From a virus (taxonomy: Duplodnaviria > Heunggongvirae > Uroviricota > Caudoviricetes), in the IMG/VR virus record IMGVR_UViG_2579779052_000010: a stretch of 9,116 nt of DNA. One strand, given 5' to 3'. Positions 1 through 9,116 of the stretch are shown in pieces (the first letter of the stretch is position 1; each line of letters begins with the position of its first letter). The position numbers were made by a program, and so were the translations under genes. The notes beneath the pieces are model-generated. The model ran no database searches. It was not told where the DNA came from and saw nothing but the letters and a program-made list of their open reading frames with translations.

Positions 1-483
1 ATGACGAAGAAAAAAGCACATAAACCTGGTTCAGCGACCATCGCGCTTAACAAGCGCGCCCGTCACGAATACTTTATCGAAGAAGAGTTCGAAGCGGGAC
101 TTGCCCTGCAAGGCTGGGAAGTTAAATCCCTGCGCGCAGGAAAAGCCAATATCAGCGACAGCTACGTCCTTCTGCGTGACGGAGAGGCATTTCTGTTTGG
201 CGCTAACATCACGCCAATGGCCGTGGCCTCCACGCATGTGGTGTGCGATCCTACCCGTACCCGCAAGTTACTTCTCAACCAGCGCGAACTGGACTCATTG
301 TACGGTCGCGTCAATCGAGAAGGCTATACCGTAGTGGCGCTCTCCCTGTACTGGAAAAATGCCTGGTGCAAAGTGAAAATCGGCGTCGCCAAAGGTAAGA
401 AACAGCACGATAAACGTTCAGATATCAAAGAGCGCGAATGGCAGGTGGATAAAGCGCGTATCATGAAAAATGCCCACCGTTAA
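1..483 (+). CDS. smpB: SsrA-binding protein SmpB (complete, 160 aa)
   Basis: Translation [30 protein letters not shown]... matches enterobacterial SmpB as I recall it; stop TAA at 481-483; tmRNA gene lies immediately downstream, the conserved smpB-ssrA arrangement. Confidence 0.96.
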
Positions 484-697: not shown

Positions 698-1060
698 GGG
701 GCTGATTCTGGATTCGACGGGATTTGCGAAACCCAAGGTGCATGCCGAGGGGCGGTTGGCCTCGTAAAAAGCCGCAAAAAATAGTCGCAAACGACGAAAA
801 CTACGCTTTAGCAGCTTAATAACCTGCTTAGAGCCCTCTCTCCCTAGCCTCCGCTCTTAGGACGGGGATCAAGAGAGGTCAAACCCAAAAGAGATCGCGT
901 GGAAGCCCTGCCTGGGGTTGAAGCGTTAAAACTTAATCAGGCTAGTTTGTTAGTGGCGTGTCCGTCCGCAGCTGGCAAGCGAATGTAAAGACTGACTAAG
1001 CATGTAGTACCGAGGATGTAGGAATTTCGGACGCGGGTTCAACTCCCGCCAGCTCCACCA
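698..1060 (+). ncRNA. ssrA: tmRNA (transfer-messenger RNA, SsrA), 363 nt
   Basis: Starts GGGGCTGATTCTGGATTCGACGGG and ends GGTTCAACTCCCGCCAGCTCCACCA (tRNA-Ala-like acceptor/T-arm with encoded CCA). Internal tag frame present. Sequence agrees with E. coli tmRNA from memory. Confidence 0.96.
787..819 (+). other. tmRNA tag reading frame GCA AAC GAC GAA AAC TAC GCT TTA GCA GCT TAA (ANDENYALAA-stop)
   Basis: Direct translation from resume codon GCA at 787 to TAA at 817-819; canonical enterobacterial degradation tag. Confidence 0.9.
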
Positions 1061-1071
1061 AATAAAACAAA

Positions 1072-1100
1072 GGGTTACGTGAAAACGTAGCCCTTTTTTT
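1072..1100 (+). terminator. Rho-independent terminator downstream of ssrA (8-bp stem GGGTTACG/CGTAGCCC, 6-nt loop, T7 run)
   Basis: Stem 1072-1079 pairs with 1086-1093 (one G-U wobble), followed by TTTTTTT at 1094-1100. The minus-strand reading is also followed by a U-rich tract, so it may act bidirectionally. Confidence 0.6.
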
Positions 1101-1106
1101 ATGCCC

Positions 1107-1147
1107 CGTGGCGGCAAAATGGCGACAGACGATTGGGCGTGGCGACA
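1107..1147. repeat. Three copies of a 10-bp motif CGTGGCG(G/A)CA (1107-1116, 1118-1127 as aaTGGCGACA, 1138-1147)
   Basis: Read directly: CGTGGCGGCA, AATGGCGACA and CGTGGCGACA, lying between the tmRNA 3' end and the ogr terminator. Position suits integrase arm-type binding sites of the prophage att region; function not demonstrated. Confidence 0.35.
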
Positions 1148-1154
1148 TGGGCAA

Positions 1155-1176
1155 TAAAAAACCCGCCAGTGGCGGG
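1155..1176 (-). terminator. Rho-independent terminator of ogr (minus-strand stem CCCGCC/GGCGGG, 3-nt loop, U6 tract)
   Basis: On the minus strand CCCGCCACUGGCGGG (1176-1162) is followed by UUUUUU (1161-1156), directly abutting the ogr stop codon at 1179-1177. Confidence 0.55.
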
Positions 1177-1392
1177 TTAGTATGCAAACTGCTCCTGCAG
1201 GCCTTTTGGATGCGGTGGAGCTGCACTGATTTTCTCCGGGCGGCAAACCGATCTCACAAACGTTTCATGGGTTACAAACGTATGCCCGCATTCAATATTT
1301 GTACATTGGTTGTAACGCTCTTTGGTTTCGCTGGAGACCTGAAAGCTGCTGCGTGTATGTGCTGCCATTCCACACAACGGACAATTCATCAT
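1177..1392 (-). CDS. ogr: Ogr/Delta-family zinc-finger late transcription activator (about 71 aa)
   Basis: Translation MMNCPLCGMAAHTRSS...TKERYNQCTNIECGHTF has the CxxC...CxxxxC pattern and resembles P2 Ogr (MFHCPLCQHAAHARTS...). The supplied ORF starts at a TTG (1398); I prefer ATG at 1392-1390, preceded by AAGGAG with about 8-nt spacing. Last gene before the att end, as in P2. Confidence 0.85.
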   Translation of the reverse strand: MMNCPLCGMAAHTRSSFQVSSETKERYNQCTNIECGHTFVTHETFVRSVCRPEKISAAPPHPKGLQEQFAY

Positions 1393-1463
1393 GAGCAACT
1401 CTCCTTAATCATTTTTGCTGAAATCGCAATAATGATACACCATAATTCAATTTTGAGAACCAA

Positions 1464-2561
1464 TTATTCCATTTCGAGATCGTCTATTTTCACCTCAAAA
1501 TCCAGGCTGGTCGTAAATCCATTATCTGCAGTAACGGTATGGGTCAGCGTGGTAATGGTCCATTCAGCATCATCAATCTGCTTTTTGAACCCCTGCACCT
1601 TTACCGGCATTTCCGTATAGAGATCAGCGCGCCCTTCTGCCAGCTGCATAGAGAATGAGGCCACACCACGCTGCAGGCGCTCCCATTGCATTTTTGCTGC
1701 CCGTTCTGCATTGCTTCGGTTCGCATAAGTCCGACTGAGGACCAGCACGTTTTCATCCGTACCGACCAGGTAATCCCCCTGTTTCTCCTCCGGCGTTTTT
1801 GTCGTTGTGGTTTTACGCTTCCGCTTTACCTTTACCGCTTCTTTTTTTACCGGTTCCCGCGTATGTAGCCAGCTGGCAATAACGCCGGTATAGGCGCCAC
1901 GGTCTGCCAGAGTGAAGCGGTGGCCATCGCCATCTTTACGGGTAATCGTGATAACCGGCAGCGCTTTGCCACTGGCAGTTTTGCCCTGGCCCTGCCGGAG
2001 AAACAGCAGATTGCCATCCTTCACAGATGCAATGGCGCCATACTGGCGCGCCAGCCGCATCAGGAAACTGGCGTCGCTCTCGTTTGTCTGGTCGATGTGA
2101 TCGATCGCTTTGTCGGTCAGGTCTTTGCCCAGCGCCATTTTCAGGTTATGGCGCCCGGCTATTTCTTTCACCACCTCCCCCACGGTTGTCTGGTGCCATG
2201 ACTTTTCACGCCGGGTATTCAGCGTTTCCCGGAAGTCTGCGCTGCGGGCGCGAATGGTCAGACGGTCAGGCGCGCCACTGTGTTCAATTTCATCTACCGT
2301 ATAACCGCCCTTTGGGAACAGCGGCTGACCTTTCCAGCCCAGCGCCACGGTGATCACCGCTCCACGGCGCGGCAGCACAATCAGACCGTCCGCGTCGTCC
2401 AGCTCCAGATCAAGCTGGTCAGCCTCAAAGCCCCGGTTATCGGTCAGGGTCAGGCTCATCAGGCGCTTATCCAGCACCGTTGTAATATCCTTACCCTCAA
2501 TCGTGATGCTGAATGCTGGCGTTTTGCTGCCGGTATTCAGCAGCCCTGAATCAAAACTCAT
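1464..2561 (-). CDS. D: Phage late control gene D protein (P2 gpD-like tail protein), 365 aa
   Basis: Size, position (last tail gene before ogr) and sequence character match P2 gpD. Start ATG overlaps the U stop as ATGA at 2561-2558 (translational coupling). Confidence 0.88.
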   Translation of the reverse strand: MSFDSGLLNTGSKTPAFSITIEGKDITTVLDKRLMSLTLTDNRGFEADQLDLELDDADGLIVLPRRGAVITVALGWKGQPLFPKGGYTVDEIEHSGAPDRLTIRARSADFRETLNTRREKSWHQTTVGEVVKEIAGRHNLKMALGKDLTDKAIDHIDQTNESDASFLMRLARQYGAIASVKDGNLLFLRQGQGKTASGKALPVITITRKDGDGHRFTLADRGAYTGVIASWLHTREPVKKEAVKVKRKRKTTTTKTPEEKQGDYLVGTDENVLVLSRTYANRSNAERAAKMQWERLQRGVASFSMQLAEGRADLYTEMPVKVQGFKKQIDDAEWTITTLTHTVTADNGFTTSLDFEVKIDDLEME

Positions 2562-3043
2562 GACAGTAACCCTCCCACCGTTCCGCTGACGCTGCCAATT
2601 ACAGACGTTGCCGTGTCCTGCAGAATGCCCAGCTGATCGCTAAGGCTGCCGAACATATCTGCCAGCGACTCATCAACCCTTTTCAGTGACAATGAAAATT
2701 CAATCCGGCGCGGCATCCCGTCACGGAAAAATTCTGCTTTCGTCTGGTTCAGCCCCTCGATCACATACATGCCATAAATCGTGCCACTTCCCTCGATCAG
2801 GGGCCACGCCTTGCCCAGCTCCGCCATCTGTTCCAGCGCCAACATAGACAGCCTGCCGCCGGTGATTTCCGGTAACAGCACCCCGGATAGCGTCAGCGTG
2901 TCATTATCCGGCCCCAGAAATTGCGTGGTGGCGCGACGGTTTACGCGGCTGTTTGTCGCATGGCGCCAGCTTCGCTGATACTGCAGCTCCTGATAAGGGA
3001 CCGTGCGCAGCTCGAAAACAAATAATCCCAGCACCATCATCAT
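2558..3043 (-). CDS. U: Phage tail protein U (P2 gpU-like), 161 aa
   Basis: MMMVLGLFVFELRTVPYQ... N-terminus and size typical of P2 gpU. Start overlaps the T stop as ATGA at 3043-3040. Confidence 0.86.
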   Translation of the reverse strand: MMMVLGLFVFELRTVPYQELQYQRSWRHATNSRVNRRATTQFLGPDNDTLTLSGVLLPEITGGRLSMLALEQMAELGKAWPLIEGSGTIYGMYVIEGLNQTKAEFFRDGMPRRIEFSLSLKRVDESLADMFGSLSDQLGILQDTATSVIGSVSGTVGGLLS

Positions 3044-5835
3044 TCGTCATAGCCCCCCTGATCGCTGTAGTTACTCCGGGCCTTCGCCCTGATCCGACGG
3101 TCACGCTCATCGAGCTGGCGCGCCACCTCTCGCGCAATGTCCTGCGCATTCTGCCCTGGCTGCGCCTGGATAATAATCTGCGTGGGCGCGTCCACATGGA
3201 AAACTGGCTGCGCGCTTGCGCCCTGCCCCATCATCACGGCGCCCGATTTCACCGGCAGGCTAAACGGATGAAGCGGGGCCGCATCGACCGGCGCCGCAGC
3301 CACCCCCATCATCCCGGCAACCACCGAGGCCAGCGCCGCTGTGCGTCGCCTGCTGGTTACGTTTACCGGGCCGTTGACAATCTCCGGCCCATTCTCCCCC
3401 ACGATGCCAAACTGCCCGCGCGGGATATTGCCGCCGGTGTCGTACATTCCCGCGTAAGCCGGGAATCCGCCGGGCGGCAACATCACGCTGCCGTTACCGC
3501 CCAATGTGGCAGGCGTCTGATTTGGCAGCCTGGCGCTGGCGGCCTCTTTGTTAACCAGACCAAGTTTATCCAGCAACCAGACCACACCGGATTTCAGAGA
3601 CTCCAGCGGATGCAGTGCCATATTCAGCCCTTCCGCCAGCATTTCCCCGAACAAACGCCCCATTGATGCCGCGCTCTGCAGCTCTGCCGCCGTCGATTTA
3701 ACTGGCGTCAGCAAGTCGGTAAACCAGCCCCACAACTCCCTGACCTTATCCCCTACCCACTGAAAAATGGGCATTAGCGGGGTGAAGGCTGACAGGATCG
3801 GCGCAGCTGCCGCTTTGAACCCTTCCACCACGCCCCCCAGAAAGGCGCTGATAGGTTGCCAGTATTTCCAGACCACCATCGCCACCCCAGCCAGCGCAGC
3901 CACCACCAGACCGATCGGACTCAACAGCGCGCCCAACAGACCGCCCACAGAAAACAGCGCCACACGCAGCACTGCCAGCGGCCCGGAAACCAGCAAACGC
4001 AGCACCCCACCCGTGCGGGTCGCTGCAGCTGCAGCAGAAGGTAAAGCCTTAACCGCCAGCATCGACAGCGCGAACCGGATCACCGCAATCGGCCCCAGCA
4101 CTGCAGCCACAGCCACCGCCAGCGTACCCAGCCCGACAGTGATCGCCGCCGTCGCCGCAGCCACTTTCATCAGCGTGCCAGCCAGCACGGGATTCTGCTC
4201 AACCCAGCGCCGCAGCGCCCCGGTCACGCCTTTAACCATGCTCATGATATCCATCAGCGGCTGGCGCAGCGTTTCCCCCAGGCTGCTGAAAGCGTTCTGC
4301 GCGCCCGTCTTAACCAGCAACCACTGCGCAGACAATGAATCTTTATTAATGTCGGATTCTTTCTGCATTGAGCCGTTCGCATCAGCTCCGGCGGTGAGTT
4401 TCAACTGGCGCTGCAGCTCCGGCAGGTTGTTAGCCAGTTTCGCGGCATCATCGCCAAACTCTTTACCAAAAATCATCGTCATTGCAGACAGGCGCTTATC
4501 CTGCGGCAGCTTGTTGACCTTCTCCAGTACGCGCTGAATAGTGCCCATGGCATCCGTGGTCATCTGCTTTTCGATCTCTGCCGGATTGAGTTTCAGCAGG
4601 TCCATACCTTCAAAAAAGCGTTTGCTTTGCATGGTGGCAATGGAAAGCTCACGCACCATGGCATTTGAAGCACTGGCGGCAATTTCAGGCGCGGCGCCCA
4701 GAGAAAGGAAAGTTGAACCCAGCGCCGCCGCTTTGCGGAAGTCGAGGCGGTCAGCCACGCCCCCCATGCGCTGCAGGACGTTGATAATATCCCCGCCCTT
4801 TGACATGGCGTTATCGTCCAGGTAGTTCAGCGCATCGCCCAGCTGCTCAATGTTGCGCGTAGGCACTTTATACAGCTGCGCTATTTTTCCTAACCCCTCC
4901 GCCAGTTCATCTGCAGGCAGCTCAAAGGCCGTTGCTGCTTTAGCCGCGGTGGAGGCAAAGGCCAGCAGATCGCGCTTCTGGTCCTCAAAAGGATCATCCT
5001 GATTGATCACGCCCATGCGGGCGCCCCCCTCAACCAATGCCGCGTAGTCAATCGCGCCGTTCTCCATCGGCAGCTGCTCACTGGCTGCTTTGATGGCATC
5101 CTGCATTTCATAAAACTGCTTTGTGCGGTTGCCGTTGTCGTCACGCAGCCCATTAACCTGTTTTGCCACGCCTTTCATGGCATCTTCCATGCTGGCATAA
5201 CTCCTGACCGCAGCCACAACCGGCGCCCCCATTGCTGCGCCAGCGGCTGCCGTTGTCGCCCCGGCGCCAGCGATGCGATCACGAACTTCAAGACGGCGGG
5301 AATACTGCTCACGGACCGCATTCATCCGCGCCTGCTGTTCCCCCAGGCGTTTGAGTGATTTTTGCTGGCGGTCCAGCGCCTGCCGCGTTTCGTCAGCATT
5401 CTGCCGCAGCTCGCGCTGGGCGCTGCTAAGCTTGCGGGTATCCAGCCCTGCTTCATTCAGGGCCAGCCGCTGTTTTTGTACGGACTGACGCAAGCCGTTG
5501 TACTGCCCCTGCAGCTCATTAACACGGTTTTTTGCCTGTTCAAGCAGCCTGGCCTGCTGCGCCGTAGGGCGGTTGGTTGCTGAAAACTGCGTTGCAAGTT
5601 TTGCGGCCTCTTCGCGCGCAGCTTTCAGGTTTTGACCGGTGACGGCAAGCTGTCCGTTCGCCTTACGAAAGCCATCAATACGGGCGGCCTGAGAATCAAG
5701 CGCTTTAAGGCTGGCACGACTTTGCTGGATTGCGGCTGCCAGCTCCTTAGAGCTGGCCTGCGCAGAACGGAAGGGGCGGGTGAGTTTATCCACCGCGTTC
5801 AGAATGACCTGCAGGCGCAGGTTGTTATCGCTCAT
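3040..5835 (-). CDS. T: Tail tape measure protein (P2 gpT-like), 931 aa
   Basis: Long protein with a Q/R/A/L-rich, probably coiled-coil N-terminal part, an Ala/Gly-rich central stretch and hydrophobic Ala/Val/Leu segments later on; located between E/E' and U as in P2. Confidence 0.9.
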   Translation of the reverse strand: MSDNNLRLQVILNAVDKLTRPFRSAQASSKELAAAIQQSRASLKALDSQAARIDGFRKANGQLAVTGQNLKAAREEAAKLATQFSATNRPTAQQARLLEQAKNRVNELQGQYNGLRQSVQKQRLALNEAGLDTRKLSSAQRELRQNADETRQALDRQQKSLKRLGEQQARMNAVREQYSRRLEVRDRIAGAGATTAAAGAAMGAPVVAAVRSYASMEDAMKGVAKQVNGLRDDNGNRTKQFYEMQDAIKAASEQLPMENGAIDYAALVEGGARMGVINQDDPFEDQKRDLLAFASTAAKAATAFELPADELAEGLGKIAQLYKVPTRNIEQLGDALNYLDDNAMSKGGDIINVLQRMGGVADRLDFRKAAALGSTFLSLGAAPEIAASASNAMVRELSIATMQSKRFFEGMDLLKLNPAEIEKQMTTDAMGTIQRVLEKVNKLPQDKRLSAMTMIFGKEFGDDAAKLANNLPELQRQLKLTAGADANGSMQKESDINKDSLSAQWLLVKTGAQNAFSSLGETLRQPLMDIMSMVKGVTGALRRWVEQNPVLAGTLMKVAAATAAITVGLGTLAVAVAAVLGPIAVIRFALSMLAVKALPSAAAAATRTGGVLRLLVSGPLAVLRVALFSVGGLLGALLSPIGLVVAALAGVAMVVWKYWQPISAFLGGVVEGFKAAAAPILSAFTPLMPIFQWVGDKVRELWGWFTDLLTPVKSTAAELQSAASMGRLFGEMLAEGLNMALHPLESLKSGVVWLLDKLGLVNKEAASARLPNQTPATLGGNGSVMLPPGGFPAYAGMYDTGGNIPRGQFGIVGENGPEIVNGPVNVTSRRRTAALASVVAGMMGVAAAPVDAAPLHPFSLPVKSGAVMMGQGASAQPVFHVDAPTQIIIQAQPGQNAQDIAREVARQLDERDRRIRAKARSNYSDQGGYDE

Positions 5836-6276
5836 CGCTGGCTCCGCTTCTCTGTATCGCTTTGTACCGCCATTCCAGCACTTCGGTCAGCGGCATAACG
5901 TCAGTGACGGAGGGCGGCCAGTGAAAAATGGTGGCAATATCTGCCACCAAATCATCTACCGTCAGGCAGTCGGTAAACCGGCAAGCACCGACTTCTTCAA
6001 CAAAAAAGTGACCACCTCAACAGACAACGAGGTGAGATCGGCGGGGTCCAGCTCTGCCATTTCCTGCGGCGTCAGCGTCGGGGTGGAAATGCGGGGGATC
6101 ACCGTCATCATGGCGCCCACATCCATATCCATAAGGGCCTGCAGGCGCGTGCCACGCAGTGCGCCGGATTGCGGCTTACGCAGTACAATTTCAGTGATTT
6201 CAGTTTTACCACGCTTGATTGGGGTATCCAGCTGCACAGTCTTTTCAGTCAGTTTATCGCTCATTATCTTTTCCAT
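5825..6276 (-). CDS. gpE+E' frameshift fusion (about 150 aa: E residues 1-92, then 58 aa from the -1 frame)
   Basis: Hand translation of the -1 frame from 6001 gives VEEVGACRFTDCLTVDDLVADIATIFHWPPSVTDVMPLTEVLEWRYKAIQRSGASDER-stop, ending 11 nt inside the T start. This fills the otherwise non-coding 126-bp E-T gap. Confidence 0.65.
5962..6276 (-). CDS. E: Tail assembly chaperone gpE (zero-frame product), 104 aa from first ATG
   Basis: Small ORF between FII and T as in P2. A second in-frame ATG at 6264-6262 (MSDKL...) may be the true start. Stop TGA at 5964-5962. Confidence 0.82.
   Translation of the reverse strand: MEKIMSDKLTEKTVQLDTPIKRGKTEITEIVLRKPQSGALRGTRLQALMDMDVGAMMTVIPRISTPTLTPQEMAELDPADLTSLSVEVVTFLLKKSVLAGLPTA
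6001..6007 (-). other. -1 programmed frameshift slippery heptamer T TTT TTG (minus strand) in the 3' end of E
   Basis: Minus-strand codons ACT TTT TTG (Thr-Phe-Leu, residues 90-92 of E) form an X XXY YYZ heptamer. The -1 frame stays open for 58 codons to TAA at 5827-5825. A TTTTTTG site is the reported P2 E/E' recoding signal. Confidence 0.7.
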
Positions 6277-6313: not shown

Positions 6314-6829
6314 TCAGAGGCCAATTGCGTTGCGGTGTTCTTCCAGCAGGTCCACACCATCACAAATTTCGACCATATTGATAACATCGACCTCATAGAG
6401 CACCTCACCGGCGATCGTCAGCTTCGCATAGGTATTGGTGCTGCTGACCTTCGTGGAATTGCTCTCGCCCGTTTTCAGTTCGCCAGCATCCACCTCTTTA
6501 TGGCGCCCACGTACAACCAGCTCAACCGCCTGCACTTCGCCGGTATCGTCACGCTGAATTGAGCCAGTGAAACGCAGCTGGATGCCGTCGACAGTGGCTT
6601 TCCCCATCTGCTTGTATAGCAGTGACTCCATACCGCCAATTGAGAATTCGGTATCCAGCGCGCCATCATCCAGCCCCAAATCCACATCTGCAGATCCCGG
6701 CATCCCGCCGCCGCGATATTTTTCAAACTTGCGTGAATACTTTGGCAAGGTGATTGACTCAACAATCCCCATCCAGTTGTTCCCGTCGTTAAACAGGTTC
6801 AGGTGCTTTAACTTGCGTGGTAATGCCAT
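6314..6829 (-). CDS. FII: Major tail tube protein (P2 gpFII-like), 171 aa
   Basis: MALPRKLKHLNLFNDGNNWMG... resembles P2 FII; strong RBS AAGGGGGA upstream of ATG at 6829-6827; directly downstream of the sheath gene. Confidence 0.92.
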   Translation of the reverse strand: MALPRKLKHLNLFNDGNNWMGIVESITLPKYSRKFEKYRGGGMPGSADVDLGLDDGALDTEFSIGGMESLLYKQMGKATVDGIQLRFTGSIQRDDTGEVQAVELVVRGRHKEVDAGELKTGESNSTKVSSTNTYAKLTIAGEVLYEVDVINMVEICDGVDLLEEHRNAIGL

Positions 6830-6838
6830 GTATCCCCC

Positions 6839-8011
6839 TTATGCGCTGACGCGGCTGGCAAAATCGACCAGATAGCGATCGGTGATGCGCTGGCGCAGCA
6901 TCAGATTTTCAAGCGGCGGCACTGGCGTATAGTCGTAGTCGATCGCCAGTTTCCCGGCTTTCAGGGTGTCCTTATCGTTCACCGACTCATCCAGCCAGCA
7001 ATCACCACCAATCAGATAGCCCTGGTTAACCAGGCTGCGCATTTTGGCGCGGATACCTTCGATAATGTCGCGGGCCAGTGATGGATTCAGCGGCATATCA
7101 ACTGCCCACATATGCGCTTCCGCCATGGTGTCAGCCAGCACCTGCGCCGTGCGGGTGTAGTTTTCAAACTGGAACAACGGATCATCACTGAGGCAACGGG
7201 AACCCCAGAAGCGGAAACCGTCTTTACGAATGAGGGTGGTGATATCGTTCTGGTTAAGCAGTCCCGCATCCGTTGCCGGGTCCTGCAGATCCCAGGACAC
7301 ATCAGCGGACAGGCCAGTGACGCCATTCACGCCCACGTTAGACAGGGTTTTGTGCCAGCCGGTCTGCTCGTCAATTTTGGCGCGCATACCCAGCGCGCGG
7401 GCGGTGGCAAAAGCCGTCGCATCCGCCTGCAGCACGGTGTCAAAGTTGATAAAGTCAGGCCAAATCAACATCCCTTCACGCTGGCTGAAATTCTCACGAT
7501 AGGCGATCGCTTCCTCCATCGTTTTGCAGCCATAGGCGGAAAGGTAAGCGAACCCGCGCAGGCTCTGCGCCACGCTAAGCAGTTCAGTGGAAACCGCCTG
7601 CGTATCATGGCCCGGCACACCGAGGATGCGCGGCTTAACGCCCAGCTGCGACTGCGCAGACAGCAGCGCTTTGATGCCCGTTTTTTTACCGTCTGCCGTG
7701 ACGCCGCCGATAATATTGGCGGTGGTTTCAGCTTCGGTTTCACCCTGGGCCACGCGGATAACCACGGTGACAGGCTTTGCCTGATCTGCAATAGCATCCA
7801 GCGAGCGGGCCAGCGTGCCGGACTCGCCTGCTTTGCCGCTGGCGGTCAGCACATCGGTCAGAAGGACCGGCTTATTGAGGGGGAACACGGACGCATCGGC
7901 ATCATCGCCGGTGCAGACCATGCCCACGATGGCTGCGCTCACCGTGGTAATCGTTCGGGTGCCTTCGTTGATTTCTTCAACGCGCACGCCGTGGTGGTAA
8001 TCCTGAGCCAT
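6839..8011 (-). CDS. FI: Contractile tail sheath protein (P2 gpFI-like), 390 aa
   Basis: [19 protein letters not shown]...LIWPDF...[16 protein letters not shown]...[13 protein letters not shown] closely resembles P2 FI as recalled; RBS GGAGA about 9 nt before ATG at 8011-8009. Confidence 0.93.
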
Positions 8012-8113: not shown

Positions 8114-8671
8114 TCAGCCTGGCTGGCTGGCGGGAAATTTCTTATACAGCGTGGAAATACCCACATCAAAAAGCAGCGCCACGCGCTGACGTGTTTCACC
8201 TGCAGCCAGTAACCGCCCGGCCTGCGCCCATTGTTCCTGTGACAACTTTGGACGGCGCCCGCCGATTCTCCCCTGCGCCCTTGCTGCTGCCAATCCCGCA
8301 CGGGTTCTTTCCACAATCAGTTCACGCTCCATTTCAGCCAGGGCGCCCATAATGTGGAAGAAAAAGCGCCCCATGGGTGTCGAGGTATCAATGCTGTCCG
8401 TCAGACTGCGGAAATTAACAGCCCGCTGCCGCAGTTCCTCCACGAGAATCACCAGATGCCGCATACTGCGCCCAAGTCGATCAAGCTTCCAGACAACCAG
8501 CGTATCTCCTGGCGACAGGGTTTTAAGCAGCTTTTTTAATCCGGGGCGGTCCGATGTTTTACCGCTCATTTTATCCTCAAATATCAGCTCACATCCTGAC
8601 CGTTCCAGCGCATCACGCTGCAGTGCAGTATTTTGTTCATTTGTTGATACACGTATATAGCCTACTAACAT
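8114..8671 (-). CDS. Serine recombinase, DNA invertase family (Hin/Gin/Cin/Pin-like), 185 aa
   Basis: N-terminus MLVGYIRVSTNEQNTALQRDAL with catalytic-serine context (RVST), typical small-resolvase/invertase length and a C-terminal HTH-like segment (GETRQRVALLFDVGISTLYK). RBS GGGAGG 4 nt before ATG at 8671-8669. Confidence 0.92.
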   Translation of the reverse strand: MLVGYIRVSTNEQNTALQRDALERSGCELIFEDKMSGKTSDRPGLKKLLKTLSPGDTLVVWKLDRLGRSMRHLVILVEELRQRAVNFRSLTDSIDTSTPMGRFFFHIMGALAEMERELIVERTRAGLAAARAQGRIGGRRPKLSQEQWAQAGRLLAAGETRQRVALLFDVGISTLYKKFPASQPG

Positions 8672-8723
8672 GCTGCCTCCCTGATAAAAGGCAGCATTGT
8701 GCTACTCAACGATAGATTTTTGA

Positions 8724-9116
8724 TCAAAGGCTAAAAATTTCGTTAATCCAAGCGGAGGTTTCAGGAGAGCGTACAAATGGGCCATGAACACTCGCGTAAC
8801 ACCCCTTTGATGCCACATCCCGCTCAAGGTTAATACCGATCCAATCAACCGAGCAGATTACTCTTTCATCATCTTCGACAACACCTTTTACGATTCCTAT
8901 ATGCTTAATCGCAATCATAGGGTTGCCACGGCCTTTCATCCTTTTTATGGCGATTCGATCTCCAGGCCTGATTTCTTTTGCCGCTTCGAATTGAACTTTG
9001 TCTTCATCAATTCCCCATCCCAAAACCCAGATGTGGTTTTTAACGAACTTCTCATCCTGGTGGTCAACACCATTCCAAGACGCGCCAACTAACCAATAAC
9101 GCTGCTGATTATCCAT
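8724..9116 (-). CDS. Hypothetical protein, 130 aa, AT-rich cargo gene; loosely beta-barrel (PUA/EVE-like) pattern, unverified
   Basis: Intact ORF with ATG exactly at the window edge and stop TGA at 8726-8724. Visibly AT-richer than the tail genes. No similarity to P2 structural or tail-fibre assembly proteins that I can recognise. YWLVGASW...GDRIAIK...IGIVKG is only loosely reminiscent of PUA-like folds. Confidence 0.6.
   Translation of the reverse strand: MDNQQRYWLVGASWNGVDHQDEKFVKNHIWVLGWGIDEDKVQFEAAKEIRPGDRIAIKRMKGRGNPMIAIKHIGIVKGVVEDDERVICSVDWIGINLERDVASKGCYASVHGPFVRSPETSAWINEIFSL

Follow-up and report, generated by a model that had tools for sequence, protein, structure and literature searches.

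A stand-alone EVE/YTH-like protein inserted in the tail-fibre inversion cassette of an E. coli prophage: a probable modified-base reader

The DNA analysed here, referred to as the window, is a stretch of 9,116 nt that runs from the E. coli chromosome into a prophage and ends with an AT-rich gene for a 130-aa protein. This protein adopts the EVE/YTH fold, and its gene was inserted into the tail-fibre inversion cassette of the prophage. Very probably it is a modified-base reader carried as inserted cargo, and it is called the reader gene below. There is good support for the fold and for the domain role: in longer relatives, which are HNH and McrBC enzymes, this domain is found at the specificity position. 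For the complete reading, namely that an effector-less modified-base reader, carried as prophage cargo, marks or blocks the modified DNA of superinfecting phages, the arguments on the two sides are about balanced. Anti-phage defence as the role of the reader is a tentative assignment, for which we see slightly less than an even chance.

Results

Prophage setting

Positions refer to the window unless another sequence is named (Table 1). The prophage part begins at about position 1100, and its genes are read on the minus strand. It is preceded by smpB (Pfam SmpB, 1.5e-57) and ssrA, a stretch with 99.6% identity to E. coli genomes. A terminator-like hairpin follows the end of ssrA, and the prophage end comes next. 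The prophage backbone shares approximately 81% DNA identity with Salmonella phage Fels-2, and ssrA is the integration site common to both. The prophage is Fels-2-like (P2-like) and integrated at ssrA of E. coli, and the window covers its right end.

Two further features of the window were recorded. A 170-aa ORF with a GTG start, located opposite ogr and the end of gene D, has no Pfam match and is unlikely to be a gene. Positions 3751–4200, within the tape-measure gene T, combine a strong positive AT skew of 0.40–0.47 with 63–66% GC; a tandem-repeat scan of the whole window, including this segment, detected no repeats.

Table 1. Positions of features in the window and on related sequences
Feature	Sequence	Position	Strand	Remarks
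smpB	Window	1–483	+	E. coli chromosome
ssrA (tmRNA)	Window	698–1060		E. coli chromosome
Terminator-like hairpin	Window	~1071–1099		
170-aa ORF	Window	1108–1620	+	
ogr	Window	~1177–1392	-	
D	Window	1464–2561	-	
U	Window	2558–3043	-	
T	Window	3040–5835	-	Tape measure
E	Window	5962–6276	-	
FII	Window	6314–6829	-	
FI	Window	6839–8011	-	Sheath
Serine invertase gene	Window	8114–8671	-	185 aa
Hairpin at invertase start	Window	8671–8696	-	
Spacer between reader and invertase genes	Window	8672–8723	-	52 nt
Reader gene	Window	8724–9116	-	130 aa; AT-rich inserted cargo; stand-alone EVE/YTH-like (PUA-fold)
Crossover sites	L003	3399–3423; 5324–5348		25-nt inverted repeats
Invertible segment	L003	3399–5348		Just past window position 9116
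Invertible segment	L004	3334–5283		Just past window position 9116
DUF2971 gene	L002	4292–5233		E. coli prophage cargo
FRG-domain gene	L015	1460–2368		Atlantibacter prophage cargo
143-aa ORF	L015	9078–9509		Atlantibacter
Panacea/SocA-domain gene and 226-aa partner	L019	7687–8886		Erwinia prophage
Type I-C operons with reader homologue	L028; L051	2647–9427; 266–5148		
AAA_5 McrB-like/McrC pairs	L101; L100	4653–7963; 4995–8556		Agrobacterium and Enterococcus plasmids

The reader gene

The ORF of the reader gene was recovered with the coordinates and translation given in the initial annotation, and its ATG starts with the terminal base of the window. Nothing of the gene is cut off: the same 130-aa protein was predicted on contigs from 150 blocks of the assembly collection, and contigs L003, L004, and L006 match all 9116 bases of the window at 100% and continue past it. 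A truncated ORF was ruled out by the complete, identical protein on the longer contigs. Some annotations begin 11 codons further upstream, which results in 141 aa; the family alignment and a GGAG Shine-Dalgarno sequence favour the 130-aa start.

The AT-richness ascribed to the gene was borne out, with a GC content of 44.8% (GC3 42.7%) compared to 57.3% in the prophage part of the window. Sliding windows of 393 nt across the tail genes had a minimum of 49.6% GC, and none of the 6815 was as low as the reader gene.

Orthologues of Atlantibacter hermannii and Erwinia rhapontici each share 78% amino acid identity with the E. coli copy. Between these two orthologues, a dN/dS of 0.055 was determined; in comparisons with the E. 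coli copy, synonymous sites were saturated while the protein was still 78% identical. The low dN/dS and the identity of the orthologues indicate a real coding gene under strong purifying selection. Public records of E. coli, Citrobacter, and Kluyvera label it as 'hypothetical protein' or 'phage associated protein', and literature searches on its accessions and on solo PUA-like anti-phage proteins found no reports.

Insertion into the tail-fibre inversion cassette

The gene had been placed between the tail-fibre module and FI. This interval is right, but FI is not the adjacent gene, as the gene of a serine invertase intervenes; neither the invertase nor the location in an inversion cassette had been noted in the initial annotation. 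The invertase matches Pfam Resolvase (1.4e-51) and HTH_7 (2.9e-13) and is of the Gin/Hin/Pin type. It shares 83% amino acid identity with the Fels-2 invertase and approximately 77% nucleotide identity with E. coli pinE.

On the contigs that extend past position 9116, the gene order is H, an assembly gene, an inverted alternative assembly gene with an alternative H 3' end, the reader gene, the invertase gene, and FI. The tail-fibre 3' region is flanked by 25-nt inverted repeats with the core AAACCAAGGTTT, which is typical of Gin/Hin/Cin/Pin crossover sites. Between the site centres, 1926 bp are exactly inverted in L003 compared to L004, with flanks that are 100% identical, and the switch is thus active in nature. 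Inversion swaps the H 3' end and the assembly gene. A serine invertase, flanking inverted sites, and both orientations were all found, as in the Gin/Hin/Cin/Pin inversion systems. The reader gene itself lies outside the invertible segment, between the invertase gene and the right crossover site, which ends 85 nt upstream of the reader ATG. The earlier suggestion that it may belong to a larger system, with more genes upstream of 9116, did not hold: what follows there is the crossover site and then the invertible genes for tail fibre and fibre assembly, with no more cargo.

In Fels-2, the crossover site (AAACCTCGGTTT) is located 62 nt from the start codon of the invertase gene with no intervening gene, and the last ~30 nt of the invertase leader can be aligned between Fels-2 and the prophage of the window. 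Given this gene-free interval and the alignable leader, the reader gene with its flanks represents an insertion of approximately 0.5 kb. Besides being absent from Fels-2, the reader had no hit when 50,697 phage records were searched by tblastn and 5,426 complete E. coli genomes by megablast. Variable presence, deviant composition, and a position between the tail-fibre genes and FI characterize the gene as moron-type cargo. The tail-fibre-to-FI interval (Z/fun, within the tail genes) had been named as an accessory and defence hotspot of P2, which is stated in the literature (PMC13586616).

Classification as accessory cargo, and not as a structural or tail-fibre assembly protein, was upheld: no profile match was significant, the composition is unlike that of the backbone, and the gene is not ubiquitous at this slot. 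A structural or assembly function would be suggested by the position beside the tail-fibre genes and by nothing else. The protein matches neither the Caudo_TAP profile (PF02413) nor a structural family in Pfam or NCBIfam, the Caudo_TAP chaperones are encoded by separate ORFs upstream, and homologues of the reader occur in chromosomes outside prophages as well as being missing from Fels-2 and all phage records. The probability of such a function is close to nil.

The order crossover site, reader gene, invertase gene is common to E. coli, Atlantibacter, and Erwinia. The Erwinia prophage has another baseplate type (Baseplate_J and DUF2612) and the same order of tail fibre, crossover site, reader, and invertase. 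Judging from gene order, the cassette evidently travels as a unit between phage backbones. The conserved order on a differing Erwinia backbone, together with the similar divergence of reader (78%) and invertase (84–86% amino acid identity), would also suit an accessory factor of the switch, i.e., a reader that tunes Gin/Pin-type inversion, for instance by the DNA methylation state. A gene between crossover site and invertase gene stays linked to both, however, and linkage alone is therefore weak proof. Furthermore, Fels-2 has the same type of cassette without the reader gene, and a serine recombinase was found nearby in only four of 77 loci, one of which (Photobacterium, L024) has it four genes away on the opposite strand. 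To our knowledge, the inversion systems of Mu, P1, and e14 work without such a factor. A role as inversion accessory is very unlikely, and the invertase is part of the host cassette, separate from the function of the reader.

A hairpin with an 11-bp stem (UGCUGCCUUUU / GGGAGGCAGCA) encloses the Shine-Dalgarno sequence of the invertase gene and the A of its ATG. Its RNA fold has an MFE of -21.3 kcal/mol (z = -1.8), and the stem is kept in the E. coli, Atlantibacter, and Erwinia copies, whereas the loop is variable. This hairpin may keep translation of the invertase low. The reader and invertase genes are probably co-transcribed. A weak conserved -35-like element is present approximately 60 nt upstream of the reader ATG; a consensus promoter scan upstream of the gene had no pick-up, with weak -35/-10-like elements only. 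The co-orientation of the two genes, the short spacer, and the -35-like element suggest low constitutive co-expression.

Other cargo was seen in the related prophages. A DUF2971 gene in an E. coli prophage and an FRG-domain gene in the Atlantibacter prophage both lie between tail genes S and V and are read from the opposite strand. The Atlantibacter prophage also carries a 143-aa ORF between invertase gene and FI, and the Erwinia prophage a Panacea/SocA-domain gene with a 226-aa partner downstream of the invertase gene.

Protein family and fold

The reader protein has no match in Pfam (E ≤ 0.01) or NCBIfam and none among the PADLOC families (PADLOC-DB 2.0) at E ≤ 1; a single PHROGs match (E 0.1) was non-significant. 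Searches of 43 family members against Pfam at E ≤ 5 returned noise (FeoA, GldM, etc.), with no EVE (PF01878), YTH, or ASCH among the matches. PDB sequence searches with the protein and with the family profile yielded chance matches (Jagged-1, haemagglutinin, and CusF), and a search of viral folds in BFVD gave weak matches to uncharacterised proteins.

Homologues are nevertheless numerous. A word-indexed search found 43, nearly all of 120–135 aa, with an invariant GDRIAIKR motif. An exhaustive profile search extended the family to 688 clusters (50% identity) at E ≤ 0.001, with a taxonomic spread that takes in Enterobacteria, cyanobacteria, Neisseria, and Planctomycetes. Stand-alone proteins make up most of the family.

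An AlphaFold2 model built from the family alignment (pLDDT 92.4, pTM 0.87) shows a beta-barrel with three helices. In the fold comparison, scores were 10.0 for the EVE protein PH1033, 9.7 for VcaM4I, an EVE-HNH enzyme specific for 5hmC/5mC, 8–9.3 for several YTH m6A readers, 7.9 for THYN1 bound to 5mC DNA, 7.5 for an ASCH domain, and 6.9 for the N-terminal domain of McrB from Thermococcus gammatolerans in complex with m5C DNA. Foldseek agreed with an EVE/YTH-like fold at a probability of 1.00. The PUA-like pseudo-barrel can be superposed on the solved domains, which places the protein in the EVE/YTH clade of the PUA-like superfamily at fold level. The initial guess of a PUA/EVE-like barrel was therefore right as regards the fold, but the sequence family is separate from EVE.

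Across 140 diverse members, W30, D53, K58, G74, and W92 are near-invariant, followed by Y7, W8, F24, and W123. A catalytic Cys/His site was considered as well; the candidate residues C106, H72, and H111 show less than 75% conservation across the wide family, and HNH-fused members have another residue in place of the Cys. As far as conservation can tell, the pattern fits a candidate binding pocket better than an active site and would be compatible with an aromatic cage. The same residues speak against a small PUA/ASCH-type enzyme or ligand binder, which would hydrolyse or sequester a modified nucleoside, nucleotide, or signalling molecule without reading a polymer. The EVE and YTH fold matches also outscore ASCH, and the fusion partners described below suggest DNA recognition. 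Such an activity is highly improbable.

The same domain in nuclease and McrB relatives

In five longer family members, the reader part is followed by an HNH domain (Pfam HNH or HNH_2) at the C-terminus. The reader protein is 40–42% identical to their N-terminal reader part over the whole domain. In one of these relatives the HNH part matches VcaM4I (7e-14), and in another it matches E. coli McrA (8e-5). A diverged reader domain was also found near the N-terminus of two plasmid-borne AAA_5 McrB-like proteins, each with McrC (PF10117) encoded next to it; the family HMM matches these McrB-like proteins with E ~1e-7 (nominal database size, one million sequences). Fusions to VcaM4I-like HNH, McrA-like HNH, and McrB (with McrC) put the domain at the specificity position of three modification-dependent restriction architectures. 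In type IV enzymes, a nuclease or translocase is fused to the reader or serves as its partner. This holds for the relatives with HNH fusions and McrB-McrC pairs, whereas the 130-aa protein is the domain alone.

Further fusions were noted in one set of members (P0059, P0076, P0086, P0122, P0150, and P0152). They comprise an N-terminal domain of unassigned type (IWWCNQ...GD.TVHYRSG), a weak Phd/YefM antitoxin-like segment (E 3.5e-4), and an N-terminal extension of approximately 90 aa, also unassigned.

These architectures bear on the nature of the target. The YTH relatives read RNA, and RNA may be the target of the reader, too. YTH-like binding of a modified base in mRNA, tRNA, or rRNA, with altered translation or RNA stability in the lysogen, fits the YTH fold matches and the slightly acidic pI of 6.1, which is atypical for a strong DNA binder. 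The fusion partners of the family, DNA nucleases and McrB, are DNA-targeting, however, and RNA-metabolism genes are not recurrent in the neighbourhoods. We consider an RNA reader to be improbable and modified DNA to be the likelier ligand.

Neighbourhoods of solo copies

The surroundings of solo copies were compared in 80 loci, with one genome per species and crude ORF calls. Partner genes were searched for by all-against-all BLAST within four genes on either side in 77 non-redundant loci. No conserved partner gene, nucleases included, was found; recurrent neighbours were limited to the invertase in enterobacterial prophages and Cas4 in Neisseria and Ottowia. The lack of a conserved partner across the 80 genomes also argues against the multi-gene system that had been considered at the outset.

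Elsewhere, the neighbours include DNA methyltransferases, GmrSD_N, GajA-like ATPases, Cas4-like and CoiA nucleases, ApaLI, Zeta toxin, KAP NTPase, toxin-antitoxin pairs, integrases, and transposases. One member adjoins a defence-associated cluster with TerB, a BrxC/BrxD-type ATPase, a DEAD helicase, SIR2, and HerA. Overall, the neighbours of solo copies are varied and lean towards conflict and mobile functions. Carriers of the reader are prophages, small IS-flanked plasmids, and integrase neighbourhoods, and homologues are also present in cyanobacterial, Neisseria, and other chromosomes outside prophages.

In a Neisseria sp., cas7 and cas4 of an intact type I-C operon are separated by a reader homologue, with gaps of 26–27 nt. 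N. gonorrhoeae has a decayed version of this arrangement. The operon of the Neisseria sp. additionally contains a 251-aa gene of unassigned function ahead of cas1.

The carriage on mobile elements would also be expected if the solo reader served counter-defence, occupying modified sites on phage or host DNA in competition with McrA, McrBC, or EVE-HNH-type nucleases. A type IV specificity module without its nuclease could in principle act as such a dominant-negative competitor. Members inside chromosomal CRISPR-Cas operons and defence islands, where genes of host defence are expected, do not suit shielding. In addition, the prophage copy lies in the late tail region beside the invertase gene and not among early genes, so the protein would be absent before incoming DNA is attacked. 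We know of no DNA hypermodification in P2-like phages, which also counts against this explanation. Its probability is accordingly low.

Discussion

Possible mode of action

The most plausible scenario is that the reader gene is expressed in the lysogen, probably from the same weak transcript as the invertase gene. The protein would bind nucleic acid, most likely DNA, with a modified base, and this base may be flipped into the candidate pocket lined by the aromatic residues Y7, W8, F24, W30, W92, and W123 together with D53 and K58. Binding could then mark or block the modified genome of a superinfecting phage. The reader would thus correspond to the recognition half of type IV restriction and would act by binding alone or together with a nuclease provided in trans. 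It would be of selective value in conflicts with phages or mobile elements that carry modified DNA.

Arguments against this scenario are the lack of an effector domain in the protein, of a conserved partner, and of a PADLOC match, as well as the slightly acidic pI and the weak promoter-like elements. A precedent for action by binding alone is given by catalytically dead McrA and its isolated reader fragment, which still prevent plaques of T4gt, but at low titre only, the fragment restricting this phage weakly (PMC6182155); binding alone may hence be a weak defence.

A further proposal is that the nuclease-less reader is itself the conflict module. It would act either by binding-only exclusion, a 'nuclease-free type IV restriction', or as a portable specificity adaptor that guides unrelated machinery to modified DNA in trans, such as nucleases of the host or, for Neisseria, the enclosing type I-C CRISPR-Cas operon. 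This proposal is unlikely; if true, a self-sufficient reader would explain the hundreds of partnerless solo copies that are kept by purifying selection.

The prophage copy offers a clean single-gene test of whether an effector-less reader affects phage infection. Moreover, the gap between crossover site and invertase gene can hold cargo, which is then transferred along with the cassette from one phage backbone to an unrelated one. Should the reader gene turn out to have no phenotype, the value of the present analysis would be one of annotation and little else.

Comparison with known systems

Stand-alone EVE proteins and EVE/YTH-nuclease fusions have been described (PMC7641849, PMC6765204, PMC12707154), and the kind of protein is therefore known; so far, nothing about the reader gene runs counter to expectation. 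New are the large EVE/YTH-like family, which profile libraries miss (Pfam, NCBIfam, and PADLOC; PHROGs non-significant), the solo copy within the tail-fibre inversion cassette of an E. coli prophage, and the copies embedded in type I-C CRISPR operons. As the libraries do not see this family, its members are annotated as 'hypothetical', including those that serve as the specificity domain in HNH or McrBC enzymes.

The EVE proteins (PH1033/UPF0310 and the EVE domain of VcaM4I) have a fold like that of the reader, but a relation at sequence level is not detectable. The motifs of the reader differ (YW.VGA, GDRIAIK, W92, and W123), and it has no nuclease. Compared to the YTH domains of YTHDC1, YTHDF1-3, and Mmi1 and the McrB N-terminal domain of T. 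gammatolerans, the reader shows 6–14% identity; YTH domains read m6A in RNA.

With regard to location, the reader resembles the accessory genes of P2 (Z/fun, tin, and old) and the hotspot systems, being AT-rich variable cargo in the tail-fibre-to-FI interval. It is related neither by sequence nor by domain to fun, tin, old, or the PADLOC models, and its gene is located inside an inversion cassette, in contrast to the classical P2 hotspot near cos.

A parallel to its setting is found on the e14 element, where McrA is encoded next to pinE, a Pin-type invertase gene, at the tail-fibre end of the element. The location of McrA on e14 has been described (PMC12707154). McrA is, like the reader, a prophage-borne protein beside a Pin-type invertase gene, and it recognizes modified cytosine. 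A relative of the reader family has a McrA-like HNH domain; McrA itself brings its own nuclease, whereas the reader protein has none. The McrA reader (NEco) differs in fold and is reported to recognize the base without flipping it (PMC7145662).
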